A stretch of DNA of 64,000 nt from a virus (IMGVR_UViG_3300021255_000131:1-64000); one strand, 5' to 3'; shown: positions 24,253-62,274, counted from the first letter of the stretch. Made by a program: numbers and translations. Notes: generated by a model from the sequence alone, not told the origin.

Positions 24253-24519
24253 TTATGTCAGCATGTTCAGAAACTCAGCCTCGCCGACCTCGACAGCCAG
24301 GCCTTTGAAACAGGCGTTGTTCCAGCACCATTTATGATTGTCTTCTTTGATTATGTAGCGCGGATCCGGATTATAATGATCAAAGAGGCCATCTATTGTA
24401 ACGACAGCACCCAGATAGCGGTCCATCAGGCCCTCCGGGTTTTGACACGCGGCTCTGTTCGCAGGCCAGTGATCGACAACCTGCACACGATCTCCAGGCT
24501 TATAAACATAAGACATCAT
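24253..24519 (-). CDS. Small SH3/KOW-like protein with EFxxML tail
   Basis: 'YKPGDRVQVV..MDRYLGAVVTI..Y.IKED..W.W'; ends EAEFLNMLT. Confidence 0.65.
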   Translation of the reverse strand: MMSYVYKPGDRVQVVDHWPANRAACQNPEGLMDRYLGAVVTIDGLFDHYNPDPRYIIKEDNHKWCWNNACFKGLAVEVGEAEFLNMLT

Positions 24520-24954: not shown

Positions 24955-25458
24955 TCACGCGCCTCCGTTCAGAATCTCTATTGCTTTTTGCACGTCCTCT
25001 TCGCTCAGGCCGTTTTCATAGAACTGCGTATTGACAAAATGCTGATTGAACTCGGGCTCGTCGAAGCCTTCAAAGATATCGTCGTCCAGGACACACCAAT
25101 GGGACACCGGTTGCCCGTTCTGGCGGTATTCAGCGATCAATTCTTCGATCTGCTCTTTTCTGTGACCGTCGTTCTCATCAACAGAAGTCATATCATAGAT
25201 TTTCAGACCCTCGGCTTTCAGCTTTGACATCAGCTCGATCGCGAACGGGTCTTCCTGAAGCTCCAGGGGCATACCGACAAGTATACTCCGCCGCCATGTA
25301 GAGGACAGAACGATCTTTGCACCGGTTGCGTCGATGATTTTACGCAGAAGCTTCACCTTTTCCGGGTCGACGCCGTAGTAAATGCCGACACTGTATTTAC
25401 ATCGATCATAATTCAGTACGCCGTCGACGTCGAGAAATAACAGTTTCACAGGCATCAC
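24955..25458 (-). CDS. HAD-superfamily phosphatase (RNA-repair-associated type)
   Basis: FLDVDGVLN, IVLSSTWR and VLDDD motifs. Confidence 0.85.
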   Translation of the reverse strand: MMPVKLLFLDVDGVLNYDRCKYSVGIYYGVDPEKVKLLRKIIDATGAKIVLSSTWRRSILVGMPLELQEDPFAIELMSKLKAEGLKIYDMTSVDENDGHRKEQIEELIAEYRQNGQPVSHWCVLDDDIFEGFDEPEFNQHFVNTQFYENGLSEEDVQKAIEILNGGA

Positions 25459-25763
25459 CCTTTCAGTATGTCGTAGAAGTCATACGCGTTCGGCGCGGGC
25501 TGATCGAGCTCCTGAATGCAAGCATTGTTCCAGAACCAGCCGCCAAAGAAGGGGCCTTCGCCTCTGTCTTCTACCATTCTGTATTCCGGCCTGGCAGGAT
25601 CGCCGCCAAGAAGCTTGACAGACTCGATGGTCATGACGGTGCCAAGATACTTGTCCATCTCTCCTCTTTCGTTTTCATAGCACGCGCCGCCAGGATCCCA
25701 GCGATCTACGATTCGCACTCTGTCGCCGAGCTCGTAGACTATATTGCCTTCAATCGTTGTCAT
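25455..25763 (-). CDS. Small SH3/KOW-like protein, paralogue of 24253..24519
   Basis: 'YELGDRVRIVDRW..CYEN..MDKYLGTVMTI..WFWNNACI'; ends DFYDILKG. Confidence 0.65.
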   Translation of the reverse strand: MTTIEGNIVYELGDRVRIVDRWDPGGACYENERGEMDKYLGTVMTIESVKLLGGDPARPEYRMVEDRGEGPFFGGWFWNNACIQELDQPAPNAYDFYDILKG

Positions 25764-30717: not shown

Positions 30718-31011
30718 TTAATCGAGAAGATCAAAGAACTCTTCTTCCGTTGGCTCTCTCGCGTCTTCTACAGGAGACGATATGTCAAGCCCGCCGACCT
30801 GACACAAGTCTTCGAAAGCGCTCAAGTTTATGTCTGCCGCATTCCAAGTTATAGTGCTCGGCGCCTCCCACAGTTGATAGCCAGACGTTGTGCCTGCATA
30901 ACTGCTGATCGTCGACCATGCCATTGGGGCGGTCGATGATGTGGCGGTCGTCCATGGTTGCGCAAGTGTCTGCGAGTCTATCCAATTTAAAAAACCACCT
31001 GTCGGCATCAC
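30718..31011 (-). CDS. Low-complexity hypothetical protein with EFFDLL tail
   Basis: Coupled to the upstream gene; ends EPTEEEFFDLLD. Confidence 0.5.
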   Translation of the reverse strand: MMPTGGFLNWIDSQTLAQPWTTATSSTAPMAWSTISSYAGTTSGYQLWEAPSTITWNAADINLSAFEDLCQVGGLDISSPVEDAREPTEEEFFDLLD

Positions 31012-31283
31012 GAATCCTCCAACAGTTTCATTAATTGATCCCGTTCAGGCAATTTCTCGTCAAAAACGGTGACAGTTTTCAGCGTCGTCCTGATGTTGGC
31101 GACGCTCTTGTAGCTCATGAGAGGAACCAACAAAGGATTGGAAATATCAGTACTACAGTAAGTACTGAAATCAAAACCATCCACGCCGGATACTTCGAGC
31201 CGGATGATCGGTTCATCATCCTTATCTGTGATCAGGATCTTTCTGGCTTTGCTCAGCCGCTCTTTTAAATTAAGGTCAGTCAT
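31008..31283 (-). CDS. Hypothetical protein
   Basis: Overlapping start/stop with both neighbours; ends ERDQLMKLLEDS. Confidence 0.55.
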   Translation of the reverse strand: MTDLNLKERLSKARKILITDKDDEPIIRLEVSGVDGFDFSTYCSTDISNPLLVPLMSYKSVANIRTTLKTVTVFDEKLPERDQLMKLLEDS

Positions 31284-33126: not shown

Positions 33127-33765
33127 TTACCAGAGGATATCGTCGATGGATCCAATGATCCCGTCGCAGACCTTATACTTCATGCAATCCTCAGCGTTCA
33201 GCTCCCAATCGTTCGCCTTCTTGCGGTTGAGCGTCGCCTTCGGGATTTCGGTCTTCGTGAGAATATAATCCTTCATTTTCTTCAGGACTTTCTTGTAGGA
33301 CTCGGACGCGTCGAGCACCTTACCGGCGTCGCCCTCGAAGCCGGCAGAGCCCTCATGAATGATCATGGTGGCGTTGGGCGTCATGAACCGCTTCTGGCCG
33401 GCCATGAAGATGAGCCCGGCTGAGGAGTGTGCGACGCCGATATTGTAGGTGTACACAGGTGTTTTGGACGTCTGGATCGCGTCGACCAGCATCCACATGA
33501 AATCGCCAATGCCGCCATAGGACATGATGACGATGCGGATCGGCTTGCGCTCTTCAACAGGTTTGCCATAATCTTCCGCGTTCCAGAGCATAATCTGCTT
33601 ATGCAGGCGGAGCATGGACTCATTGACGTCGGTCTCCAGATAGATGACGCGGTCCTTAAGCAGCTGATGGTATGCGAGGTAATCAGGATCGGGGAAGTTT
33701 GGATCAGCGGACAGGGCTGAAAGAATTTCCGACAAGGCTTCGGTAATAGACATTTGTTCAGGCAT
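33127..33765 (-). CDS. clpP: ClpP-family protease
   Basis: 'IMSYGG', 'GVAHSSAGLIFMAG' (Ser), 'IIHEG' (His) and 'DWELNAEDC' (Asp). Confidence 0.85.
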   Translation of the reverse strand: MPEQMSITEALSEILSALSADPNFPDPDYLAYHQLLKDRVIYLETDVNESMLRLHKQIMLWNAEDYGKPVEERKPIRIVIMSYGGIGDFMWMLVDAIQTSKTPVYTYNIGVAHSSAGLIFMAGQKRFMTPNATMIIHEGSAGFEGDAGKVLDASESYKKVLKKMKDYILTKTEIPKATLNRKKANDWELNAEDCMKYKVCDGIIGSIDDILW

Positions 33766-33788: not shown

Positions 33789-34646
33789 TTACTGCGGCGG
33801 GTCCAGCAGATCGGCCAGCTTAGCGGTTTCAGACCGCACAGATTCGCGCAGATGCACGTAACCGAACAGCCGGTTGCCCTTCAAGCAGTTGACGGCGGCC
33901 AGCAGACCGTTGTCCCGCTCGAAAGCTTTCGCGTCGATCTGACGGAAATCGCCTTCAAGCACGAGCACGGAGCCTTCGGACACGCGGCCAAGCAGCAGCT
34001 GGACGTGCTCGCGGGTCAGGTGCTCCGCCTCGGAGCAGAAGATGATCGCGTTCTTGATGTCTCTGCCGCGCAGGAAGCCTAAGTGAACGACCTCGATCTT
34101 GCCGTGCTCGATCATGAAATCAAGCTGATCCTTGCCGCCGATATGATCGGCCAGTGGCATGGCCCAGACGGACATCTTGTCGTAGTAATCGCCTTTCAGA
34201 TGACCGATAGGGTTAGAATCTTTGACCTCAATGTTGTTGCGGACCCAGACGATCTTGTCAAAGGCGCCGTCCTGCAGGAGCTTAAACGCGCAGGCTGAGG
34301 TCAGGAACGTTTTGCCGGAGCCGAAGGAGCCGGACAGGCATTTGACGGTGGTCGTCTCGTCGAGCAGCAGATCAATGGCGCATTCCTGCTCGGCGTTCTT
34401 AGCCCTTACCTTGCCGAAGGCGGAGCTTTCGACAGGCTTGCGCCAGATGGGCTTATACTTGCCATCCTGCCACTTGTATTTGTCGACGACGTGGCCGGCT
34501 TCATCCGTCAGGAACAGGTACTGGTTTTCAGCCAGGTCGAAAACGTTACAGGTTTTGTCTGCATAAAGCTGTGCGGCTTCCGCCGACAACGCGGAAGCCG
34601 CCAGGATACCGGTGTAGTCATTAGGAAGTGTCTTAATAAACACCAC
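33789..34646 (-). CDS. phoH: PhoH-family ATPase
   Basis: GSFGSGKT, 'IGHLKG', 'FLRGR', 'LLLGRVSEGS..GDFRQID' and 'RSETA'. Confidence 0.9.
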   Translation of the reverse strand: MVFIKTLPNDYTGILAASALSAEAAQLYADKTCNVFDLAENQYLFLTDEAGHVVDKYKWQDGKYKPIWRKPVESSAFGKVRAKNAEQECAIDLLLDETTTVKCLSGSFGSGKTFLTSACAFKLLQDGAFDKIVWVRNNIEVKDSNPIGHLKGDYYDKMSVWAMPLADHIGGKDQLDFMIEHGKIEVVHLGFLRGRDIKNAIIFCSEAEHLTREHVQLLLGRVSEGSVLVLEGDFRQIDAKAFERDNGLLAAVNCLKGNRLFGYVHLRESVRSETAKLADLLDPPQ

Positions 34647-49464: not shown

Positions 49465-50136
49465 TTATGCCGCTTCAAGCTTGGCTAACAGGTCTGCAAG
49501 TTTCTCCGCGTCGGTGCACTTGAGATAGTTGGACATGCCGAGCACCGGCTCTACCTTTTCAACGGCGAACTTGCGCTTTTCATCCGGAGACATGGAACGG
49601 ATGAGCGTTTTGATTTTCGAGTCTACCTTGTTGAGAACGACGGCGAGATCGGCCTTTTGCTGCCTGGTCGCGTCGTCCTCTTCCGGCAAATCTTCGCCGG
49701 CGTAGATATACAAGCCGAGGCCGTGACGCGCAATAGCCTTGGTCAGCGAACGCTGAATGGCCTTATTGACCTGCATGGAGGTAACGGCGTCGGCCGGAAT
49801 CGAAGCATTCTTGAAGTCCATGACGGGCAGTTCTTCGATATACTCCTGAACGTAATCGCCGTCGACCACGGTGACGCCGGTCTTGACCCAGCATGTGCGG
49901 CCATCGGTGAAGTAGTTCCAGTCATCCTTGTTGTGGTAAACGGTATAGTAGGACAGGGGATAGCGCTTTTTCAGCTCCGCCCAGGCCCAGGCCCAGCTCA
50001 GATAGGTCAGACCGTTCTTCTTTTCCGTGTGTTTGGTAACGTCGATTTGGTTTAAGACGCTGAATACGGACTGTACTTTGGCTTCCGCGGCCGCCGCTTC
50101 GGGCGCGGCGGCCTCCGCTTTCTTGACGGGAGGCAT
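49465..50136 (-). CDS. Sak/Rad52-like single-strand annealing protein (DUF1071)
   Basis: 'KKNGLTYLSWAWAW', 'LPVMD' and 'NKAIQRSLTKAIARHGLGLYIYAGEDLP'. Confidence 0.9.
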   Translation of the reverse strand: MPPVKKAEAAAPEAAAAEAKVQSVFSVLNQIDVTKHTEKKNGLTYLSWAWAWAELKKRYPLSYYTVYHNKDDWNYFTDGRTCWVKTGVTVVDGDYVQEYIEELPVMDFKNASIPADAVTSMQVNKAIQRSLTKAIARHGLGLYIYAGEDLPEEDDATRQQKADLAVVLNKVDSKIKTLIRSMSPDEKRKFAVEKVEPVLGMSNYLKCTDAEKLADLLAKLEAA

Positions 50137-54842: not shown

Positions 54843-55514
54843 TTACAGGGCGAGAACGTCCCAGGTTTCCGTATTGATCAGGATGGTTTTCTTGATGGTT
54901 TTCTTCTTGACGAAGTCAAGAAAGTTGACGACGCCGCAGGTGACGATCATACGAACGGTGGCGGCGACGCCCAGTGTGACGCGGCACGCGGACATCGGCG
55001 TCTCCTGTGCCGCTTCCTCATGCGTGAATTGCATTGAAGCGATGAACGCTTCTTTCTGCTTTTCATTAGACCAGTCCGCCGCGTAATGCTGCGCGTCGGT
55101 CAGGCGTGTTCTGAAATCGAACATAGCCTTGATGAACGGATTGCTCTTGTTCTCTTCAGCAATCTTACGGCGCAGCTCGATATTATCAACGCAGAGGAAG
55201 ACATAGCCGCTCAGCTTCTGATTGGTGTAGCCTTTGTCCGCGACGCGCAGAGATTCCGCGATTTCCGGGTTAATGGCCACAAGATGATCAGCCAGGGCTG
55301 TCACCTTTTCTTTGCCGATGTCCGCCGAAGTAAACATCTGGTTAACGATGTTCTTGGGCTCAACGTAATCGAAATCATAGAGCGTGATGTCCTTGAGCCC
55401 GTAACGAACAAGCAGCTCCGCAAGCGTAGAGCCTACGGAGCCGCAGCCGATGATATGGATACGGCCTTCCGCCATGGAAGGCTGAAAGAAGTCATAGCTT
55501 TTCGACAGATCCAT
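54843..55514 (-). CDS. E1/ThiF-family adenylating enzyme
   Basis: 'IIGCGSVGS', 'DFDYVEPKNIVNQ', 'CVDNIELR', and candidate catalytic Cys in 'MSAC'. Confidence 0.92.
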   Translation of the reverse strand: MDLSKSYDFFQPSMAEGRIHIIGCGSVGSTLAELLVRYGLKDITLYDFDYVEPKNIVNQMFTSADIGKEKVTALADHLVAINPEIAESLRVADKGYTNQKLSGYVFLCVDNIELRRKIAEENKSNPFIKAMFDFRTRLTDAQHYAADWSNEKQKEAFIASMQFTHEEAAQETPMSACRVTLGVAATVRMIVTCGVVNFLDFVKKKTIKKTILINTETWDVLAL

Positions 55515-56344
55515 TACGAATAACTCCTTCCGTACGGATAGCCGCGACCGTAAGGCGCCGTGCCATCGTCAAAAAGATCGTCGTAATCTTCGTACGGGTC
55601 CTCAGCGGCCTTTTTTTGCTTTTCCTTTTCCTTTTTCTCTTTCTTTCCGCCGTTGATAACCGTACCTGTAAAGACCGTTTTTTTAACCCTGGCCTGCGCG
55701 GCCTGAATGAAACTCGTTTTGGTGTAGGTGTTGTCCGTGCCGCCGTAGTCGAACACGATGGAGAGATCGATATCCTTCGTTTCATACATGACGTTGTTCG
55801 GGATATCGTAGATAGCGCTGCTGATTTCACCCTTCTTGTTCCAGATCTGGAAAATCCAGGCTTTATCAGGATCAGACGCCTTCATCAGATTCGCTCGGTG
55901 CGTCATATCGGTCGAGGAAGGGAACACGGCCATATTGACATGACTGTGACCGTGAAAGAACATATGATCCGCCTGGTCCTGTGTGAGATGCTGCAGGAAC
56001 ATCGGGTAGCTGTTTTCGCCCTCGTAGACGGTGTTGACGGTCGTGCCGGTCACCTCCTGATCGTACACGAGGACGTCGTAGACGAGCCAGGTTCTGTCGC
56101 TGGTCTTGCGTACCAGGGCGTGCCAGCCGACCTCAGAATCGAATTTCTGAACGAGCAGCAGCATCTTGATGTACGCTTCCGCGGAATATGAGATGGTGGC
56201 GCGTTCTTCCGGCAGCGCGTCGCGGGACGCGAAGCTACGGGTGAAGGTGAAGTGTCCGTCGGACAGACGAGCCGTCTCGAGCTCCTTCAGGAACTCCTGT
56301 CTCATTTTCTCTTTATCGGCTTCGGTAATTGTAATCGGTTTCAT
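55514..56344 (-). CDS. JAB/JAMM metallopeptidase
   Basis: 'SEVGW' Glu plus an exact HxHx7SxxD (HSHVNMAVFPSSTD). Charged, low-complexity tail. Confidence 0.88.
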   Translation of the reverse strand: MKPITITEADKEKMRQEFLKELETARLSDGHFTFTRSFASRDALPEERATISYSAEAYIKMLLLVQKFDSEVGWHALVRKTSDRTWLVYDVLVYDQEVTGTTVNTVYEGENSYPMFLQHLTQDQADHMFFHGHSHVNMAVFPSSTDMTHRANLMKASDPDKAWIFQIWNKKGEISSAIYDIPNNVMYETKDIDLSIVFDYGGTDNTYTKTSFIQAAQARVKKTVFTGTVINGGKKEKKEKEKQKKAAEDPYEDYDDLFDDGTAPYGRGYPYGRSYS

Positions 56345-57693
56345 TTCTGCTCCTTCAGTTTCTCCAACGCTTCTTTTGCGTTATATTCGTTGCCGTCCTT
56401 GTCGATGAGGACTTTTTCTTTCTTGGTGGTGGCGAAGAGCCGCTTCATAAACGGGATAAAGGTGACGCCTGTCTCTGCCAGGTTGATAGACTGGCAGGAC
56501 GCGACGCACTGCTCAATGGCGCCGATATAGTTGCTGTTGCGGATCGCCGTTCTGATCGGGTCGCGGTAAGAACCGAGACACTGATGATATTGCAGATGCG
56601 GATTCGGAAGATACTGACGGGTCAGCTCTTCCGGATATTCGTAATTGCGGAAGACGGCCACGTCCGTGTTGAGCGCGTATATGGCGCACAGACGAATGCG
56701 GAAAACCGGATCATCCGAGAAGATCGCGTCCATCAGGAGTTTGCGGTCTTCTACCTTGCAGAAAGGCGGATCGGCGGTCATACGGTAGATAGAGCCGTTC
56801 GAGGAGGCACGGCGATAAAAGTCCAGGTCGAACCAGTCTGCGGTCGTCTTGACGTAGAATTTGATGGTGCCGTCGGAAACGTTGACAAGCTGAAGGTTCT
56901 TGTGCCGCTTGAAATAATCGACAAGCTCGGTGCTCTCGTTCTTCGGTCGGGCGAGCAGGGCTTCATATTTAATCGTCGCGTCGTTGACCTTCTGCACCAG
57001 GCGGGCGTATTCGGCGACATTATCTTCGAGCGCCGCCCGTGCGACCCGCAGGGTGTTGTTGGTTTCATCAATACTGCGTTCGAGCTCGACGTTGGCGAAG
57101 CGCTTAAGCAGGACTTCGTTCAGCTCGTTCTCAAGACCGGACTGACGGACCAGCTTCGCGATCATGGACTCGAAGTCTCCAGAGGTGCGCTTGGTCATGG
57201 AGAAGCATAACTTCTTCTCGTCATCGGTCAGCGGCTTTTCATCAAATGGCGTTTTGATAAACAGCGGGAGCAGCGACATAAGCATGTGCGTCTTGCGGGT
57301 ATCGAGCTCCTGCGAGAAGACGACCGCGCTGTTGATATCATGGTTGACGAAGATCTGGCAGCTCAGCCATTTCGAAAGATAGTTTTCGGCCTTTTCGAGC
57401 TTGGTGTAGGCGGGATGCGACGCGGCGAACGAATCGTCGGTCGTGTGAACGATATTGAAGGATTTCGGCAGCTGCGTGTCCGGGATCGGCCACGACTCCT
57501 TAATGCTTCTGAGGGTCAGGGTTTCGTCTTCCGGCAGCCTGTTAAACAAAAGAATCCTTGCCGTCGCGAGGCATGTGCTATCATCCGAATCGAACGGGTA
57601 ATGTTTATCGACGCTGATTCTGCTGAGGATTCCGTGTTCGTTGCCGAACGTGTCGGTCAGGCCGCGGACGGTATTGAATGTTGCGCTGAACAT
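56341..57693 (-). CDS. Coiled-coil protein with C-terminal prokaryotic E2-like domain
   Basis: 'LPNPHLQYHQCLG' resembles the E2 HPN..CL(G) active-site region. It lies between the Ubl and JAB genes. Confidence 0.65.
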   Translation of the reverse strand: MFSATFNTVRGLTDTFGNEHGILSRISVDKHYPFDSDDSTCLATARILLFNRLPEDETLTLRSIKESWPIPDTQLPKSFNIVHTTDDSFAASHPAYTKLEKAENYLSKWLSCQIFVNHDINSAVVFSQELDTRKTHMLMSLLPLFIKTPFDEKPLTDDEKKLCFSMTKRTSGDFESMIAKLVRQSGLENELNEVLLKRFANVELERSIDETNNTLRVARAALEDNVAEYARLVQKVNDATIKYEALLARPKNESTELVDYFKRHKNLQLVNVSDGTIKFYVKTTADWFDLDFYRRASSNGSIYRMTADPPFCKVEDRKLLMDAIFSDDPVFRIRLCAIYALNTDVAVFRNYEYPEELTRQYLPNPHLQYHQCLGSYRDPIRTAIRNSNYIGAIEQCVASCQSINLAETGVTFIPFMKRLFATTKKEKVLIDKDGNEYNAKEALEKLKEQK

Positions 57694-57749: not shown

Positions 57750-58364
57750 TTACTGAATGGTGATGAAGCCCTTGATCTTCTCCTGATCCGCGTGGATGGA
57801 CGCGACGGCGTCAGCGAAGTTCTCCTCGATCTTGTTCAGATAGAGCAGGCCCATGCCGATCTTGTCGGTCAGCTGGGCTTCGATATCATTGTCGCGGTCG
57901 ACGCACATTGTGATGGTGGCGTAGCCTTCCTGGTTCGTGGCCTCGGAGAAGGTGGCGCCCTTATCGTTGATAGAGCCGGAGGAGCGGGTGGTCACGTCGA
58001 TGCCGAAGAGCTGCTCGTTCTTCTTATCGTCCTTGTAGAGCTTCAGAGCCTCGGGGCGATACTTCTTCGCGAGCTGAATATCCTCGAGCTTCAGCGCGGA
58101 GGTGACGACAGCGGCTTCACCGATAACGGTCACGGTGGCGGCGTTATCCGCCTTCACGACGACGGACAGGTAGCAGGCATCCTCGATACCGTGCTGCGCG
58201 AATGTCTTATCGAGATCGCCGGGACGCAGGGAGCATCCGTCGATCTGGGTCATGCCGACGGAATAGTTGACGCGGTTCTCGTCGAGAACTTCGCGGACGG
58301 TGGCGTCTTCAGAAACGTTGATGGTTTTGCGGCCGGAATTGGTGATGAGGGTGATCTGGATCAT
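57750..58364 (-). CDS. Ubiquitin-like (beta-grasp) domain fused to a ~130-aa C-terminal domain
   Basis: Start MIQITL after AAGGAG. 'ITLITNSGRKTINVSEDATVREVL..IDG..L...DLDKTFAQHGIEDACYLSVVVKADNA' follows the Ub-fold pattern. Confidence 0.72.
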   Translation of the reverse strand: MIQITLITNSGRKTINVSEDATVREVLDENRVNYSVGMTQIDGCSLRPGDLDKTFAQHGIEDACYLSVVVKADNAATVTVIGEAAVVTSALKLEDIQLAKKYRPEALKLYKDDKKNEQLFGIDVTTRSSGSINDKGATFSEATNQEGYATITMCVDRDNDIEAQLTDKIGMGLLYLNKIEENFADAVASIHADQEKIKGFITIQ

Positions 58365-58562: not shown

Positions 58563-58895
58563 TTACAGCAATGAAAGAAATTCCGCGGGATCCGCTTCGA
58601 GCTCGTTCATTTCCGACTCCGAAAGCAGCATCCAGTCTGCCCAGTTGTATGCCCGGTTGAACTGTTTTCTGTGTTCCTCGTTCGGGTCGATGCACGACAA
58701 TGTGTAGGTTCTGGCATTTTTATACGTTATCTCGCATTTGTATCCCGCGAAAGTTGTCATTTCCGGAACAACGGATGGGCTGCGATGGGATTCGATGATA
58801 TCCGGATGGATATAGACGACGCTGCCCTCTTTAAAAAGTTTGGTGCCCTCTCTCTCCTTGCATCTTTGATTTGCAAGTCCTTCAAAGTTGAGCAT
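58563..58895 (-). CDS. Small SH3/KOW-like protein with EFLSLL tail
   Basis: 'LFKEGSVVYIHPDI..VVPEM..FAG...IT...Y.L..W.DWML'. Confidence 0.7.
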   Translation of the reverse strand: MLNFEGLANQRCKEREGTKLFKEGSVVYIHPDIIESHRSPSVVPEMTTFAGYKCEITYKNARTYTLSCIDPNEEHRKQFNRAYNWADWMLLSESEMNELEADPAEFLSLL

Positions 58896-58896
58896 A

Positions 58897-59103
58897 TCAG
58901 CCTCCGAGCATTTGAAAATGCTTCTTCTCTGTCGTCGTGTCTTCCGGCACCTTTCTGAGCTGCGAGGCGCGGAAGTATCGCTTTCCTCCCAACTGGTTGC
59001 GGCAGGTGTAATAAACGTCTCCGTCCTGTCCGGTGTCTATGACCTCGTAAATGTCACCGGTGGCCACGTATAAAACCGCATCTCCGTTCTGATACCTTCT
59101 CAT
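58897..59103 (-). CDS. Small SH3-like protein
   Basis: 'YQNGDAVLY..GDIYEVID..YYTC'; ends HFQMLGG. Confidence 0.6.
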   Translation of the reverse strand: MRRYQNGDAVLYVATGDIYEVIDTGQDGDVYYTCRNQLGGKRYFRASQLRKVPEDTTTEKKHFQMLGG

Positions 59104-59387
59104 ACAAGCATTCCTTCAAATTCTTCGGCCGTGACGGGGTCTTCCGTTTCCGGTGGGACAAACATGTAATCGGCCCAGTAAAACGGGCATTCCTCGAGCG
59201 TGTATGAATCCGGATGCACGTGTTGAATGGTCATTTCCTGGCCTCGGTAGTCGAGCATATCGCTGACGACGGACGGACCAAAATCGAGATCGTCGGTCAG
59301 GTCCGTTCTGACGACAACTTTATCGCCGACCTGAAACAGATCGGCATTGGCATGTTCCAAACAATATTCATCTGTCAATTCAGGCAT
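59100..59387 (-). CDS. Small SH3/KOW-like protein with EFEGML tail
   Basis: 'LFQVGDKVVVRTDL..VVSDMLDYRGQEMTI..YTLEE..WADYMF'. Confidence 0.75.
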   Translation of the reverse strand: MPELTDEYCLEHANADLFQVGDKVVVRTDLTDDLDFGPSVVSDMLDYRGQEMTIQHVHPDSYTLEECPFYWADYMFVPPETEDPVTAEEFEGMLV

Positions 59388-59444
59388 ATTTGCTCCTTCA
59401 TGAATCGTGTTGTTAGAAAAGATCTCCTTCGTGATATCCGGCGT

Positions 59445-59741
59445 TCACAGCAGCATGGCTTCAAACTCAGTCATGGAAACGTCTTCTTCGGGCGGTACCA
59501 GCATATAATCCTGCCAGTAGTAGGTTCGTATACGACAATCTTCGCCGCTCAGACGATAATAGACACCCTTTCTCTGGGCGACGAAGGCTGGTTGTCCCGA
59601 CAACTCGGTCATTAGCTCAGTGACGACCTTGCCATACGGCATCCTTTTTATCAGGTCCGGTCTGATGACAACGGCGTCTCCGACCTGAAACCATTCCGCT
59701 TTGCAGTGCGCTTGACAATAATCCGGTGTTAATTTTTCCAT
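59445..59741 (-). CDS. Small SH3/KOW-like protein with EFEAMLL tail (paralogue of 59100..59387)
   Basis: 'LTPDYC..H...WFQVGDAVVIRPDL..YYWQDYMLVPPE'. Confidence 0.75.
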   Translation of the reverse strand: MEKLTPDYCQAHCKAEWFQVGDAVVIRPDLIKRMPYGKVVTELMTELSGQPAFVAQRKGVYYRLSGEDCRIRTYYWQDYMLVPPEEDVSMTEFEAMLL

Positions 59742-59755
59742 TGTTACCTCCGAAA

Positions 59756-59829
59756 TAGGGCTTCTTGGACTCGAACCAAGGACCTGCGCTTTATAAGAGC
59801 GCTGCTCTGACCTGCTGAGCTAAAGCCCC
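59756..59829 (-). tRNA. tRNA-Ile(TAT)
   Basis: GGGGCTT/AAGCCCT acceptor, GCGCT-CTTATAA-AGCGC anticodon arm, GGTTCGAGTCC. Confidence 0.88.
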
Positions 59830-59832
59830 GGA

Positions 59833-59903
59833 CTGAGGCGGCGGGAGTTGAACCTGCGATGCGGGAGTCAAAGTCCCGTGCCTTACCGTTTGGCGACGCC
59901 TCA
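59833..59903 (-). tRNA. tRNA-Gln(TTG)
   Basis: TGAGGCG/CGCCTCA acceptor and CGGGA-CTTTGAC-TCCCG arm. Confidence 0.92.
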
Positions 59904-59982
59904 ATAAAAAGAGCCTGCGTGCCGAACCTATAGCACGCAGGCTTGCGCAGAAAGGATTGCTGACTTGTTTCACATCAGCAAC

Positions 59983-60058
59983 TGGTGGAGACTGGCGGAA
60001 TTGAACCGCCGGCTTCCTGCTTGCAAAGCAGGCGCTCTGCTAACTGAGTTAAGTCCCC
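59983..60058 (-). tRNA. tRNA-Ala(TGC), CCA encoded
   Basis: GGGGACT/AGTCTCC acceptor with G3:U70; CCTGC-TTTGCAA-GCAGG arm. Confidence 0.93.
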
Positions 60059-60158
60059 ACGTGCACCGGTTAGATTATAGCGCCCAAACCGGTGCCAAAA
60101 CGACGTACAGAAGTGCCGGTCATGACTCCGGCATACTGCCCCCTGTAAGGCAGCATCT

Positions 60159-60228
60159 TAGACCCTGCCTGACTCGAACAGGCGCATAAGCCATACTCGC
60201 TTCGCTCTGCCAACTGAGCTAAGGATCC
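60159..60228 (-). tRNA. tRNA-like gene with aberrant anticodon arm
   Basis: Normal acceptor, D and T arms. The anticodon arm AAGC-GAGTATG-GCTT lacks U33 and purine 37. Confidence 0.65.
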
Positions 60229-60479
60229 ATATGCGCGTAAACCTCACCGATGTAAACCGCGCCGCTGCGTTCTTACGTCTGCCGACTTCTTCGCTTTTGC
60301 TCCATTAGCAGATCAAACGTCAGCTTTAACCGCTTCTCTCTTGTGCGGAGGTTTTGTTTGCAACGCTGCAAACAAGGTGTGGGATTGGATCAAAGGCAAG
60401 ACTAATTGCGCAACCCAAGCCTTCTGTTCCAACGGCGTTGCGCGTGAGCTGCGCCATTTTCCGGCAGCTCGTCCCGACG

Positions 60480-60552
60480 AGGCCCCTGCGTGACTTGAAC
60501 ACGCGACAAGCTGGTTAACAGCCAGCTGCTCTGCCAGCTGAGCTAAGGGGCC
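60480..60552 (-). tRNA. tRNA-Asn(GTT)
   Basis: GGCCCCT/AGGGGCC acceptor and GCTGG-CTGTTAA-CCAGC arm. Confidence 0.88.
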
Positions 60553-60555
60553 ATG

Positions 60556-60771
60556 TTACAGCATTTGAAAAAATTCGGATTCTTCTACGGGGGCGCACAG
60601 ATAATCGAAATCGTCGTCTTCGACCCAATACTTGCCACCGGGGCCGTCAACAAAGATGTTACTGCCATTGACCTCCAGGACCGTGCCGATCCAGCCCGTT
60701 TTTGTAATCGAATAATAAACCGACGCTTTTTCGTTGCCGACGACCTCGTCGCCTATAGAAAATTTAGGCAT
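60556..60771 (-). CDS. Small SH3/KOW-like protein with EFFQML tail
   Basis: 'KFSIGDEVV..GWIGTVLEV..IFV..YWV'; AAAGGAG RBS. Confidence 0.72.
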   Translation of the reverse strand: MPKFSIGDEVVGNEKASVYYSITKTGWIGTVLEVNGSNIFVDGPGGKYWVEDDDFDYLCAPVEESEFFQML

Positions 60772-60997
60772 AGAAGACTCCTTTCAAAAAAGATCTCGCC
60801 CGGGGACGTAAGTTATTGTGGAACCGTCCCCGGACTTGCAGTCACACTGCCATGGCCTGTTTATCCTGCGGCATTTATGGACTGTGCCGTAAACCTCGCG
60901 TTGCATCCGAGCTCAACGCATGCTCTGAAAGGAGGTAATCACATGGCTCCCTGCCCGAGTCGAACGGGCTATTCCAATATGGCGTGTCGTCGTAACA

Positions 60998-61264
60998 CTA
61001 TGGGAGCATGGCGGTGAATTCCTCTATGTCGACATCATTATATGGCGAAAAATACTCATCGTGCGTTAATTGAAAAGTCTTTCCGTTGGCCCAGCGGTAG
61101 CAATATTCGCCGCAGTCATACCTTAAGAATACGACGGGATAATTCGTTTCGTCCAGCAGCATCCTGGCGAAGCCAGGGTTCATACCTTCTCCTCTGGAGG
61201 TGCGTCTACTGGCCGCGCATTCGCGGCCGTAGTCGTTAAGGATCAAAAGATCTCCTGTTTCCAT
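60998..61264 (-). CDS. Small SH3-like protein with EFTAML tail
   Basis: 'METGDLLIL..'; AAGGAG RBS. Confidence 0.65.
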   Translation of the reverse strand: METGDLLILNDYGRECAASRRTSRGEGMNPGFARMLLDETNYPVVFLRYDCGEYCYRWANGKTFQLTHDEYFSPYNDVDIEEFTAMLP

Positions 61265-61273
61265 ACAAACTCC

Positions 61274-61546
61274 TTATAGCAATTTTAAAAAATCATCTTC
61301 AGCAGCCTCTTCGACGTACGGTATGATATAATGACCTTCGAGCCCCAGACAATAATATGAGCCTATGTGTTCTGCCAATTCAAAGCACCCATCTTGCACT
61401 TTGGTGATCATCAGCGGCTTTCCGTTGGCGAAATCTCGTCCGAGTTTGAGTTTTTCCGCTGAAAAACTGCTCATGTAAATTTGTCTGACGTGAGCTGCTT
61501 CTTCCGGTTTTACTACAACCATATCGCCAACTTTTAATTTTTCCAT
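61274..61546 (-). CDS. Small SH3/KOW-like protein with DFLKLL tail
   Basis: Start MEKLKVGDMVVVK after GGAG. Confidence 0.7.
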   Translation of the reverse strand: MEKLKVGDMVVVKPEEAAHVRQIYMSSFSAEKLKLGRDFANGKPLMITKVQDGCFELAEHIGSYYCLGLEGHYIIPYVEEAAEDDFLKLL

Positions 61547-61869: not shown

Positions 61870-62274
61870 TTAGCCGAACGGGAACTCGTCGGGCTCCTCG
61901 GTCGCGGGAGCGGGAGCCGCGGGGGCTTCCTCGCCGTCACGCTTCTGCGCAGACAGGAACTCGAAGTTCTGGATGACGTTGATTTCGGGGCTGGCACGCC
62001 AGGACCCATCCTGCGTGGACTGATAGACCGACACCTTCAGCGGGCCTTCGACGAGCACCTGGGTGCCCTTCTTCAGGTACGGAGCGGTGTTGGTGGCCTG
62101 ATTGCGCCACATGGTGCAGCGGACATAGGTGACGGGGCGCTGGCCCTGTTCGTCACGGCGGCCGGAGTTAGCGGCGACGGTGAATGTGCACACGGGCGTC
62201 TGCACGCCAGAAACATTGCGGTTGACCAGCACAGCGTCATTGGTCAGATGTCCTACGATGGTGAGCTTATTCAT
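61870..62274 (-). CDS. ssb: Second single-stranded DNA-binding protein
   Basis: 'MNKLTIVGHLTND', 'FTVAAN', 'YLKKGTQVLVEG' and tail DEFPFG. Confidence 0.92.
   Translation of the reverse strand: MNKLTIVGHLTNDAVLVNRNVSGVQTPVCTFTVAANSGRRDEQGQRPVTYVRCTMWRNQATNTAPYLKKGTQVLVEGPLKVSVYQSTQDGSWRASPEINVIQNFEFLSAQKRDGEEAPAAPAPATEEPDEFPFG

Follow-up and report, generated by a model that had tools for sequence, protein, structure and literature searches.

Small SH3-like proteins with a common acidic-hydrophobic C-terminal tail, encoded beside a ubiquitin-like gene module in a 111-kb phage

The tailed small genes and their positions

The stretch of DNA analysed here (the window) is IMGVR_UViG_3300021255_000131:1-64000, the first 64 kb of a complete phage genome of 111,048 bp with direct terminal repeats. 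Between positions 58563 and 61546 it carries an array of seven small genes, whose products begin with an SH3-like strand and end in a short acidic-hydrophobic tail, and this family of tailed small proteins is the subject of the present work. The array stands near the head of a long leftward gene arm. Along this arm the gene order is ssb (61870-62274), the small genes, a ubiquitin-like (Ubl) gene, a gene for an E2-like protein of 450 amino acids (aa), a JAB gene and a ThiF-type E1 gene, followed by a reverse transcriptase, a YonO-like RNA polymerase and then recombination and replication genes. All gene calls are based on open reading frames (ORFs) and ribosome-binding sites only.

An earlier note on this DNA had described seven consecutive small ORFs upstream of the Ubl gene, with a common N-terminal strand and a shared C-terminal 'EFxx[ML]L' tail. 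All seven are present on the minus strand, each preceded by a GGAG-type ribosome-binding site, and the translations agree with the note both in the N-terminal x-G-[DS]-x-[VL] strand and in the C-terminal sequences that it quoted. Six of the seven have the tail itself, [DE][DE]-F-x-x-[ML]-L with at most one residue after it, whereas the seventh (HFQMLGG, 58897-59103) is one residue out of register. The seven genes are real, but five tRNA genes are interposed between them, and the family is larger than the array, with eleven members in this genome, four of them 27-34 kb away. No further tailed members were found in the remaining 47 kb of the genome.

Three of the array proteins belong to one body group (group A, see below). 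The first (58563-58895, 110 aa, tail ..ADPAEFLSLL) consists of an N-terminal helix and a predicted SH3_15-like barrel, its body is homologous to those of the other two, and it has orthologues in the related loci L044, L047 and L049. The other two group A proteins are 59100-59387 (95 aa, ..TAEEFEGMLV) and 59445-59741 (98 aa, ..SMTEFEAMLL), the latter with orthologues in L044 (P0035), L047, L009 and L008. Between the first two lies the off-register member (58897-59103, 68 aa, ..KKHFQMLGG), with an SH3-like N-terminal strand and a tail of the form F-x-M-L, that is, with one residue fewer between F and ML. Its orthologues end in HMRMLK (L044), SILKLL (L048) and QFLENLL (L049). The final GG is therefore not conserved, and a role of it as a Ubl-like conjugation end was ruled out.

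The remaining three array proteins are 60556-60771 (71 aa, ..VEESEFFQML), 60998-61264 (88 aa, ..DIEEFTAMLP) and 61274-61546 (90 aa from the ATG at 61546, ..AEDDFLKLL). The first of them has a separate body family of eight proteins across genomes, with orthologue tails DFLQML, EFMSTLLAP, TFLNILIP and DVLSLL. The second, again with a body family of its own, has the homologues P0008 and P0020 and orthologue tails EEFASMLP (L044) and KDFMNMLP (L009), and the L049 orthologue of the third ends in GDILSML.

The five tRNA genes inside the array (59756-60552, minus strand, ARAGORN) are Ile-tat, Gln-ttg, Ala-tgc, Tyr-gta and Asn-gtt. A similar block of three to five tRNA genes lies at the same array position in L044, L047, L009 and L048, and in L049 a single tRNA-Ile heads the array. 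The content of the block varies; the Tyr gene occurs only in this phage, and L009 has Thr instead of Asn.

All four members outside the array are encoded on the minus strand as well. Two of them, 24253-24519 (88 aa, ..GEAEFLNMLT, homologues P0004-P0021) and 25455-25763 (102 aa, ..NAYDFYDILKG), form the SH3-like group B and lie as a syntenic pair on either side of a HAD_SAK_2 gene, in the same way as in L007. The third, 30718-31008 (96 aa, ..TEEEFFDLLD), has an S/T/W-rich body without detectable likeness to the barrels and without any family match, and its homologue P0016 keeps the tail. In the matching region of the 105-kb genome of the related phage G001 a 98-aa ORF located 0.8 kb after the RNA ligase gene ends in NKIKELL. 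The last, 31008-31283 (91 aa), is a probable member with a weak tail, ..ERDQLMKLLEDS (DQLMKLLEDS); the G001 gene at the same position, directly after the RNA ligase gene, ends in LPEMEQLI.

Tail motif, barrel bodies and relatives

The enrichment of the motif over shuffled C-termini, which the earlier note expected, is clear. F..[MLI]L occurs in the last nine residues of nine genes, a count that includes three members that longer antisense ORFs had masked in the greedy gene set, whereas controls with shuffled tails or internal 9-mers gave an expectation of about 0.4 and at most 4 in 2,000 trials. The same signal was obtained with no prior motif, when the ten C-terminal residues encoded by each of 132 genes were scanned for every gapped pattern of three residues (7,111 patterns). 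The top pattern was EF...L, seen seven times against 0.19 expected (Poisson p 1.4e-9), and ranks 2-5 were taken by E...ML, EF..M, F..ML and EEF. Nine of the eleven tails read [DE]-F-x-x-[MLI].

The conserved tail residues are encoded by varied synonymous codons (GAA/GAG, TTT/TTC and CTG/CTT/CTC/CTA/TTG), which argues for selection on the peptide and not on a DNA element. As the DNA past the stop codons is also unrelated, a DNA repeat or gene-boundary element was ruled out as the source of the tail.

AlphaFold2 models of two proteins with different bodies, built from shallow alignments of 15-16 sequences, set the tail apart from the fold. For 59100-59387 the predicted local distance difference test (pLDDT) gives 81-95 for residues 1-80 and about 50 for residues 81-95, with a helix at 91-94 of 95. 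For 24253-24519 the means of 10-residue blocks are 81-92 (residues 1-70), 76 (71-80) and 54 (81-88), and the tail helix lies at 80-87 of 88. The linker between barrel and tail is acidic, often proline-rich and variable in length and sequence. In the top 150 group A relatives, 13 of the 15 single-domain proteins (125 aa or less) have a tail that reads [DE]-Phi-x-x-[ML]-[LFW] (Phi, hydrophobic residue), compared to 7 of the 134 longer multi-repeat proteins. The group B barrels of most other phages are without the tail and have other C-terminal domains fused instead. Given its low model confidence, the variable linker and the association with single-domain proteins, the tail therefore behaves as a separate, terminal and exchangeable element.

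The bodies are far less uniform. In BLAST with the last 12 residues removed, only the three group A proteins and the two group B proteins group together, and the rest are singletons. No family of known function in Pfam, PHROGs or NCBIfam was matched by any member; the group A members match only the unnamed phrog_7488 and phrog_17705. An exhaustive search with a group A profile, made from the three group A proteins of the window and one close metagenomic homologue, retrieved 1,522 proteins, most with 2-6 tandem copies of the domain. Multi-repeat relatives from this set match SH3_15 (PF18346) above the cut-off of 24 bits (P0023, 38.3; P0026, 36.4; P0025, 25.9 bits), whereas no window member matches PF18346 at E up to 1, so that the link between the window proteins and SH3_15 is transitive only.

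Structure comparison leads to the same domain. For the model of 59100-59387 the top Foldseek match is the REP domain of Mind bomb 1 (4xi7_A, then 4xi6) with probability 1.00, a template modelling (TM) score of 0.50-0.51, a root-mean-square deviation of 3.2-3.4 Å and 25% identity, at an E of only 0.026. The structure neighbours of 59445-59741 in the Atlas include MIB2 and SH3_15 clusters. The group B protein 24253-24519 has weak matches only, to Mib REP, YorP, PetP and Tudor domains. From profiles and models the bodies are thus probably SH3-like barrels, with group A a probable distant homologue of Mind bomb REP/SH3_15.

In about 20 other gut phages (L012-L043) the group B barrel is the N-terminal module of proteins of 140-430 aa. 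Most of these fusion proteins share a middle domain (..TVELRFDGMITTATLKRGGRDVKTAEARCNPKDTYSRAEGA..), and many of those add a second barrel; the barrel is therefore a reusable module. In another phage (L004:9544-11157) the gene for a 149-aa relative of the group B barrel is flanked by two genes that are annotated as the anti-Thoeris genes Tad8 and Tad3, so such barrels also occur in anti-defence gene neighbourhoods.

Orthology between phages was judged by synteny and pairwise identity. In the loci found through the small proteins (L044, L047, L009, L008, L048, L049 and L046) the order of small tailed genes, tRNAs, more small tailed genes, Ubl-like gene and E2-like gene is repeated as far as the contigs reach. 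Arrays are also present at loci found through the E2-like protein, namely L050, L051 (in G001), L056 (in G002) and L069 (in G003). In L044, L047, L046, L008, L049, L050 and L051 the position immediately upstream of the Ubl-like gene is taken by the array and its tRNAs. In several more distant phages and in metagenome-assembled genomes (MAGs) of Clostridia, SH3-like proteins with tail-like ends, for example DEEFETLFNELMCG, are encoded within 10 kb of the E2-like gene.

Relatives of the E2-like gene were found in uncultured phages of about 100 kb, some of them on partial contigs, and in MAGs labelled Ruminococcus, Oscillospiraceae, Lachnospiraceae, Eubacteriales and Clostridiaceae, plus one Odoribacter. 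In total, the E2-like profile search returned 23 IMG/VR loci and eight loci in bacterial MAGs, mostly Clostridia. Because of the clostridial labels of these MAGs the host is probably a gut or rumen bacterium of the Clostridium class. The GenBank phage collection gave tRNA matches and one weak match to a Clostridium phage, and nothing else.

Between lineages the tails differ in flavour, and they do so as whole sets. This genome, L044, L009 and L008 have [DE]F..ML, L049 has D[IV]..M[LF] and L048 has [EQ]VW.ML, while G001 (14 genes) has Phi..LL or Phi..LI, G002 has [AV]LSSL[LI], and G003 and some MAG prophages have EL..[FL]L, in many cases with a G after it. F occupies the first hydrophobic position in 10/11 tails of this genome, 5/6 of L044 and 3/3 of L009, but in only 1/6 of L049, 1/5 of L048, 1/14 of G001, 0/6 of G002 and 0/5 of G003. 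At least four paralogue lineages (group A and the 60556, 61274 and 58897 types) have undergone this shift, and they had separated before it took place. Tails that each served their own barrel alone would hardly be expected to change in parallel on unlike bodies, and the differences between copies in tail codons and at the two free positions make gene conversion an unlikely cause. The joint change points to a single co-evolving partner, which is what such a partner would predict.

A proposed shared partner and the competing explanations

We infer from these patterns that the tails dock all members on one shared partner, a reading to which we give about an even chance, with a slight lean in its favour. 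Each member would consist of a small SH3-like beta-barrel, a flexible acidic linker of variable length and a six-residue C-terminal motif. This motif, [DE][DE]-Phi-x-x-[ML]-L, takes the form F..ML in this phage and has 0-3 free residues behind it. The tail would be a short linear docking motif that is disordered alone and forms about two helical turns as its three hydrophobic side chains enter a groove on the partner. The divergent barrels may each bind a different thing, and the constant tail would tether all of them to the same machine. The enrichment of the tail, its presence on the barrel-unlike body 30718-31008 and the joint flavours support this architecture of variable barrel and constant docking element. 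As whole paralogue sets change flavour together between lineages, the partner is taken to co-evolve with them and is probably phage-encoded.

Several observations weigh against this reading. Once relatives from other phages are included, 6/11 bodies (group A, group B and 61274-61546) fall into one SH3_15-like superfamily; in this clustering 60556-60771 and 60998-61264 form families of their own and 58897-59103 and 30718-31008 stay separate, and the bodies outside the superfamily share the G-D-x-V strand. For these reasons the tail could have come down with an old fold instead of being a portable tag. Bodies had been claimed to be far more divergent than tails, which is true between paralogues, where BLAST joins few of them, but not between orthologues, where in 17 pairs across phages the last nine residues are 44% identical and the bodies 42%. 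Only three or four tail positions are constrained between orthologues, and the pattern is what persists. The low pLDDT of the tails may reflect the shallow alignments. Four of the eleven members are encoded about 30 kb (27-34 kb) from the Ubl genes. The co-occurrence with the Ubl operon, which the earlier note had suggested to examine, holds as an upstream array in every relative whose contig reaches that far, but most of the distant phages with an E2-like gene have no tailed array directly upstream of it. Finally, loose forms of the motif occur on 1-3% of ORFs. Because of this background the tail-like ends of JAB (EDYDDLFDD), the integrase (DIHNLLFA), the single-strand annealing protein and PhoH (KLADLL) were left uncounted. 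The Sak-type annealing protein (49465-50136, minus strand) and the unrelated PhoH-like protein (33789-34646, minus strand) have an identical KLADLL 4-6 residues from their C-termini, and this hexapeptide is also kept in the PhoH of G001.

These points lead to the alternative of a tail without any external partner, inherited within one old SH3-like family for a structural purpose or for self-association. It could, for example, be a helix at the end of the chain that closes off the barrel or holds copies together as homo- or hetero-oligomers, and its apparent constancy would come from drift in the other parts of these rapidly evolving paralogues. The common superfamily and the shared strand speak for it, as does the tail being no more conserved than the body between orthologues, and because barrel relatives often consist of 2-6 covalently linked repeats, barrel-barrel packing would be natural. 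However, AlphaFold2 leaves the tail off the barrel at a pLDDT of about 50 in two body groups, linker length and sequence vary, the tail is also found on a body unlike the barrels (30718-31008), and group B barrels fused to other domains fold without it. The joint change of flavour across unlike bodies would also be hard to explain. Such a purely structural role is considered unlikely, though it stands first among the alternatives.

If the tails do dock on one partner, the leading candidate is the adjacent module of Ubl, E2-like, JAB and E1 genes, although we hold this identification only tentatively and regard it in itself as unlikely. It is put first because of the conserved adjacency, because SH3_15 is the substrate-binding domain of an E3 ligase, because the module has no recognisable E3 or receptor, and because the tail resembles motifs that dock on Ubl proteins. 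Two of its products are candidate partners. The first (57750-58364, minus strand, 204 aa) has, according to structure matches in the Atlas, a beta-grasp Ubl domain (residues 1-75) followed by a domain of about 130 aa. The second is the 450-aa E2-like protein (56341-57693, minus strand), for which 27 homologues were collected and neither a Pfam nor a PDB sequence match was found. Across 22 homologues with identity down to 23%, its residues N364-P365-H366 and C372 are invariant, and this N-P-H..C reads like the reversed HPN..C signature of E2 enzymes.

In the case that the Ubl module is the partner, the barrels would act as interchangeable target-binding receptors. The more specific proposal that the mini-barrels are interchangeable substrate receptors of phage Ubl conjugation, with the tail docking on the Ubl or the E2-like protein, is improbable as it stands. 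Each SH3_15-like barrel would then recognise a different host or phage protein, and the set would form a kit for modular, E3-like protein tagging. The likeness of the best-sampled bodies to REP/SH3_15 would fit such a function by analogy.

Further features of the Ubl module were observed. In distant relatives (L052-L072) the Ubl fusion is split and its parts are in reverse order, a protein of about 130 aa followed by a 75-aa beta-grasp protein, which ends in ..KADNA(A/R), thus in Asn-Ala and not in Gly-Gly. In five aligned homologues of the fused Ubl protein the position six residues before the end is G, S or A. The JAB protein (55514-56344, minus strand) has a lysine-rich stretch and then an acidic/aromatic patch at its C-terminus, YEDYDDLFDDGTAPYGRGY in this phage. 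The same layout is seen in most of the 20 JAB proteins compared (L044-L072), with DDxDDPY/F in others. In the distant relatives the gene directly before the Ubl genes codes for a protein of about 200 aa with a similar C-terminus, ..DEDNP[IL]YK. From its sequence, the JAB patch may be a second, different docking motif of the Ubl module.

A doubtful explanation is that the small proteins are adaptors or timed substrates of an AAA+ protease in the manner of SspB, with the tail docking on host ClpX, ClpC or Lon and the barrel binding cargo, perhaps together with the phage ClpP. SspB docks on ClpX through its last residues, and the build of barrel, flexible linker and short hydrophobic C-terminal peptide matches. 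The phage encodes a ClpP homologue (33127-33765, minus strand), and HspQ (5ycq), a specificity factor of Lon, was a weak fold match at rank 21. However, the ClpP homologue is closest to head-maturation proteases (phrog_94). On the proposal that ClpP itself is the partner, co-occurrence does not discriminate, since ClpP (PF00574) is present in 3/5 phages with arrays adjoining the E2-like gene and equally in 3/5 without. No unfoldase was recognised among the phage proteins scanned. Moreover, the motif lies at a variable distance (0-3 extra residues) from the free C-terminus, unlike in ssrA-type tags, and a conserved host hub poorly explains lineage-specific flavours. The ClpP gene lies about 45 kb from the head genes.

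To the tail as a capsid-targeting peptide we give a similarly poor chance. Here it would bind the procapsid interior, and the mini-barrels would be packed in the head and possibly delivered with the DNA. C-termini of scaffolds or proteases and the cargo peptides of encapsulins bind the procapsid or shell interior. The genes from the portal to the major head protein include no recognised protease, and the ClpP-like protein is the only head-maturation protease candidate found. In six related genomes it runs past its canonical end in an 8-10-residue Phi-x-x-Phi-Phi extension, ending in SIDDILW in this phage and in AEELDELL in G003, whose barrel tails are EL..LL. A 384-aa protein in scaffold position, encoded outside the window on the plus strand (genome 78538-79692; L090:14538-15692), likewise ends in a duplicated [YW]-S-L-L-[DE]. 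Against this, the protease and scaffold likenesses comprise only 3-4 residues, to be read against the background of the loose motif, the scaffold [YW][ST]LL[DE] is constant in G000 and G001 while the barrel tails go from F..ML to ..LL, and the array lies beside ssb, recombination and replication genes, outside the structural module. The scaffold-position protein is built from an unassigned N-terminal domain, a long acidic linker and the duplicated C-terminal motif, which reads KKYSLLE..KQWSLLDPA here and KYTLLD..HYSLLDPV in G001.

Least probable is a mimic of a host peptide that competes for a conserved hub (as the sliding-clamp motif, the SSB tip or the C-terminal peptide of FtsZ, which are all acidic and have a Phi-x-x-Phi-Phi-like core). 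In its favour, the tails share with these peptides an acidic linker and a short hydrophobic core near the C-terminus with a few variable residues behind it, the phage ssb, whose product ends in DEFPFG, is the neighbour of the array, and the phage has a DnaE-type polymerase and no clamp of its own (no PF00712 or PF02768 in the complete 111-kb genome). Against it, the Q and the hydrophobic spacing of QL[SD]LF are missing from the tail, as are the Phe-COOH at the end of SSB tips and the Pro found in the FtsZ peptide, the phage replication proteins have no strict tail, ten or more competitors for one hub would be odd, and invariant host pockets do not predict lineage flavours.

Comparison with known systems

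The earlier note had compared the family with F-box and SOCS-box substrate receptors. What survives of this comparison is the logic, in which a variable target-binding domain carries a constant element that plugs into a conjugation machine, in agreement with the architecture of barrel plus constant tail and with the pattern of a shared partner. A box domain is not present; the constant element here has 6-8 residues and a single helix of 4-8 residues, not a 40-50-residue domain that binds Skp1 or Elongin BC, and no F-box or SOCS box Pfam match was obtained among the members. Likewise, no cullin, Skp1 or RING protein turned up among the about 45 proteins scanned, in which no search was aimed at them.

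A partial formal likeness exists to the LC3-interacting region/Atg8-interacting motif (LIR/AIM) and the SUMO-interacting motif (SIM). These consist of an acidic run with [WFY]-x-x-[LIV] and dock on ubiquitin-like proteins, on cargo receptors. The tails of this phage also combine an acidic run with aromatic-x-x-aliphatic, and their genes lie beside a beta-grasp Ubl gene. However, the fourth position is M or L, and six of the nine [DE]-F tails have M, which is outside the classical set; in addition, the tails have an extra conserved L, and sister lineages have I, V or L at the aromatic position. From the bacterial clamp-binding consensus (QL[SD]LF, QLxLxL) the tails differ by lacking Q and by a hydrophobic spacing of i, i+3, i+4.

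For the group A barrels the nearest relative is the Mind bomb REP/SH3_15 domain (PF18346), by fold and by probable distant homology. In Mind bomb this domain binds substrate peptides for the E3 ligase, whereas peptide binding by the window barrels is putative. The window proteins are also single-domain proteins with an N-terminal helix and a C-terminal tail, without the RING, MZM or ankyrin parts of Mind bomb.

Tails of comparable design are known from other phages. In T4 the tails of gp43, gp33 and gp55 dock on the gp45 clamp, and in T7 those of gp2.5 and gp4 dock on the T7 polymerase, so that shared docking tails wire several proteins to one hub. As there, several proteins of one phage share a short acidic-hydrophobic C-terminal peptide, but the carriers here are about eleven non-enzymatic mini-barrels and not replisome or transcription enzymes, in a phage without a clamp gene. 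SspB-type adaptors, which feed proteases, have the same three-part build of small barrel, flexible linker and C-terminal peptide, judged by architecture and models only. Sequence likeness to SspB or its LRVVK-type peptide is missing, and a multi-gene family is found here instead of one adaptor.

In our coverage of the literature, which was not exhaustive, no published description of tailed mini-barrel arrays in phages was found. The same docking logic would here be applied to a whole family of otherwise featureless mini-barrels beside a phage Ubl conjugation module, in a widespread clade of about 100-kb phages of gut and rumen Clostridia. Experiments have a direct way in through the six-residue handle common to eleven proteins. 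With the Ubl/E2-like machinery as hub, the family would be the first set of modular substrate receptors of a Ubl system in prokaryotes or viruses, and with another protein as hub, the array still defines an uncatalogued kind of phage accessory-gene array. By working principle, the closest known systems are the hub-docking tails of T4 and T7 together with the SspB-type build, and by fold the closest is the Mind bomb REP/SH3_15 domain.

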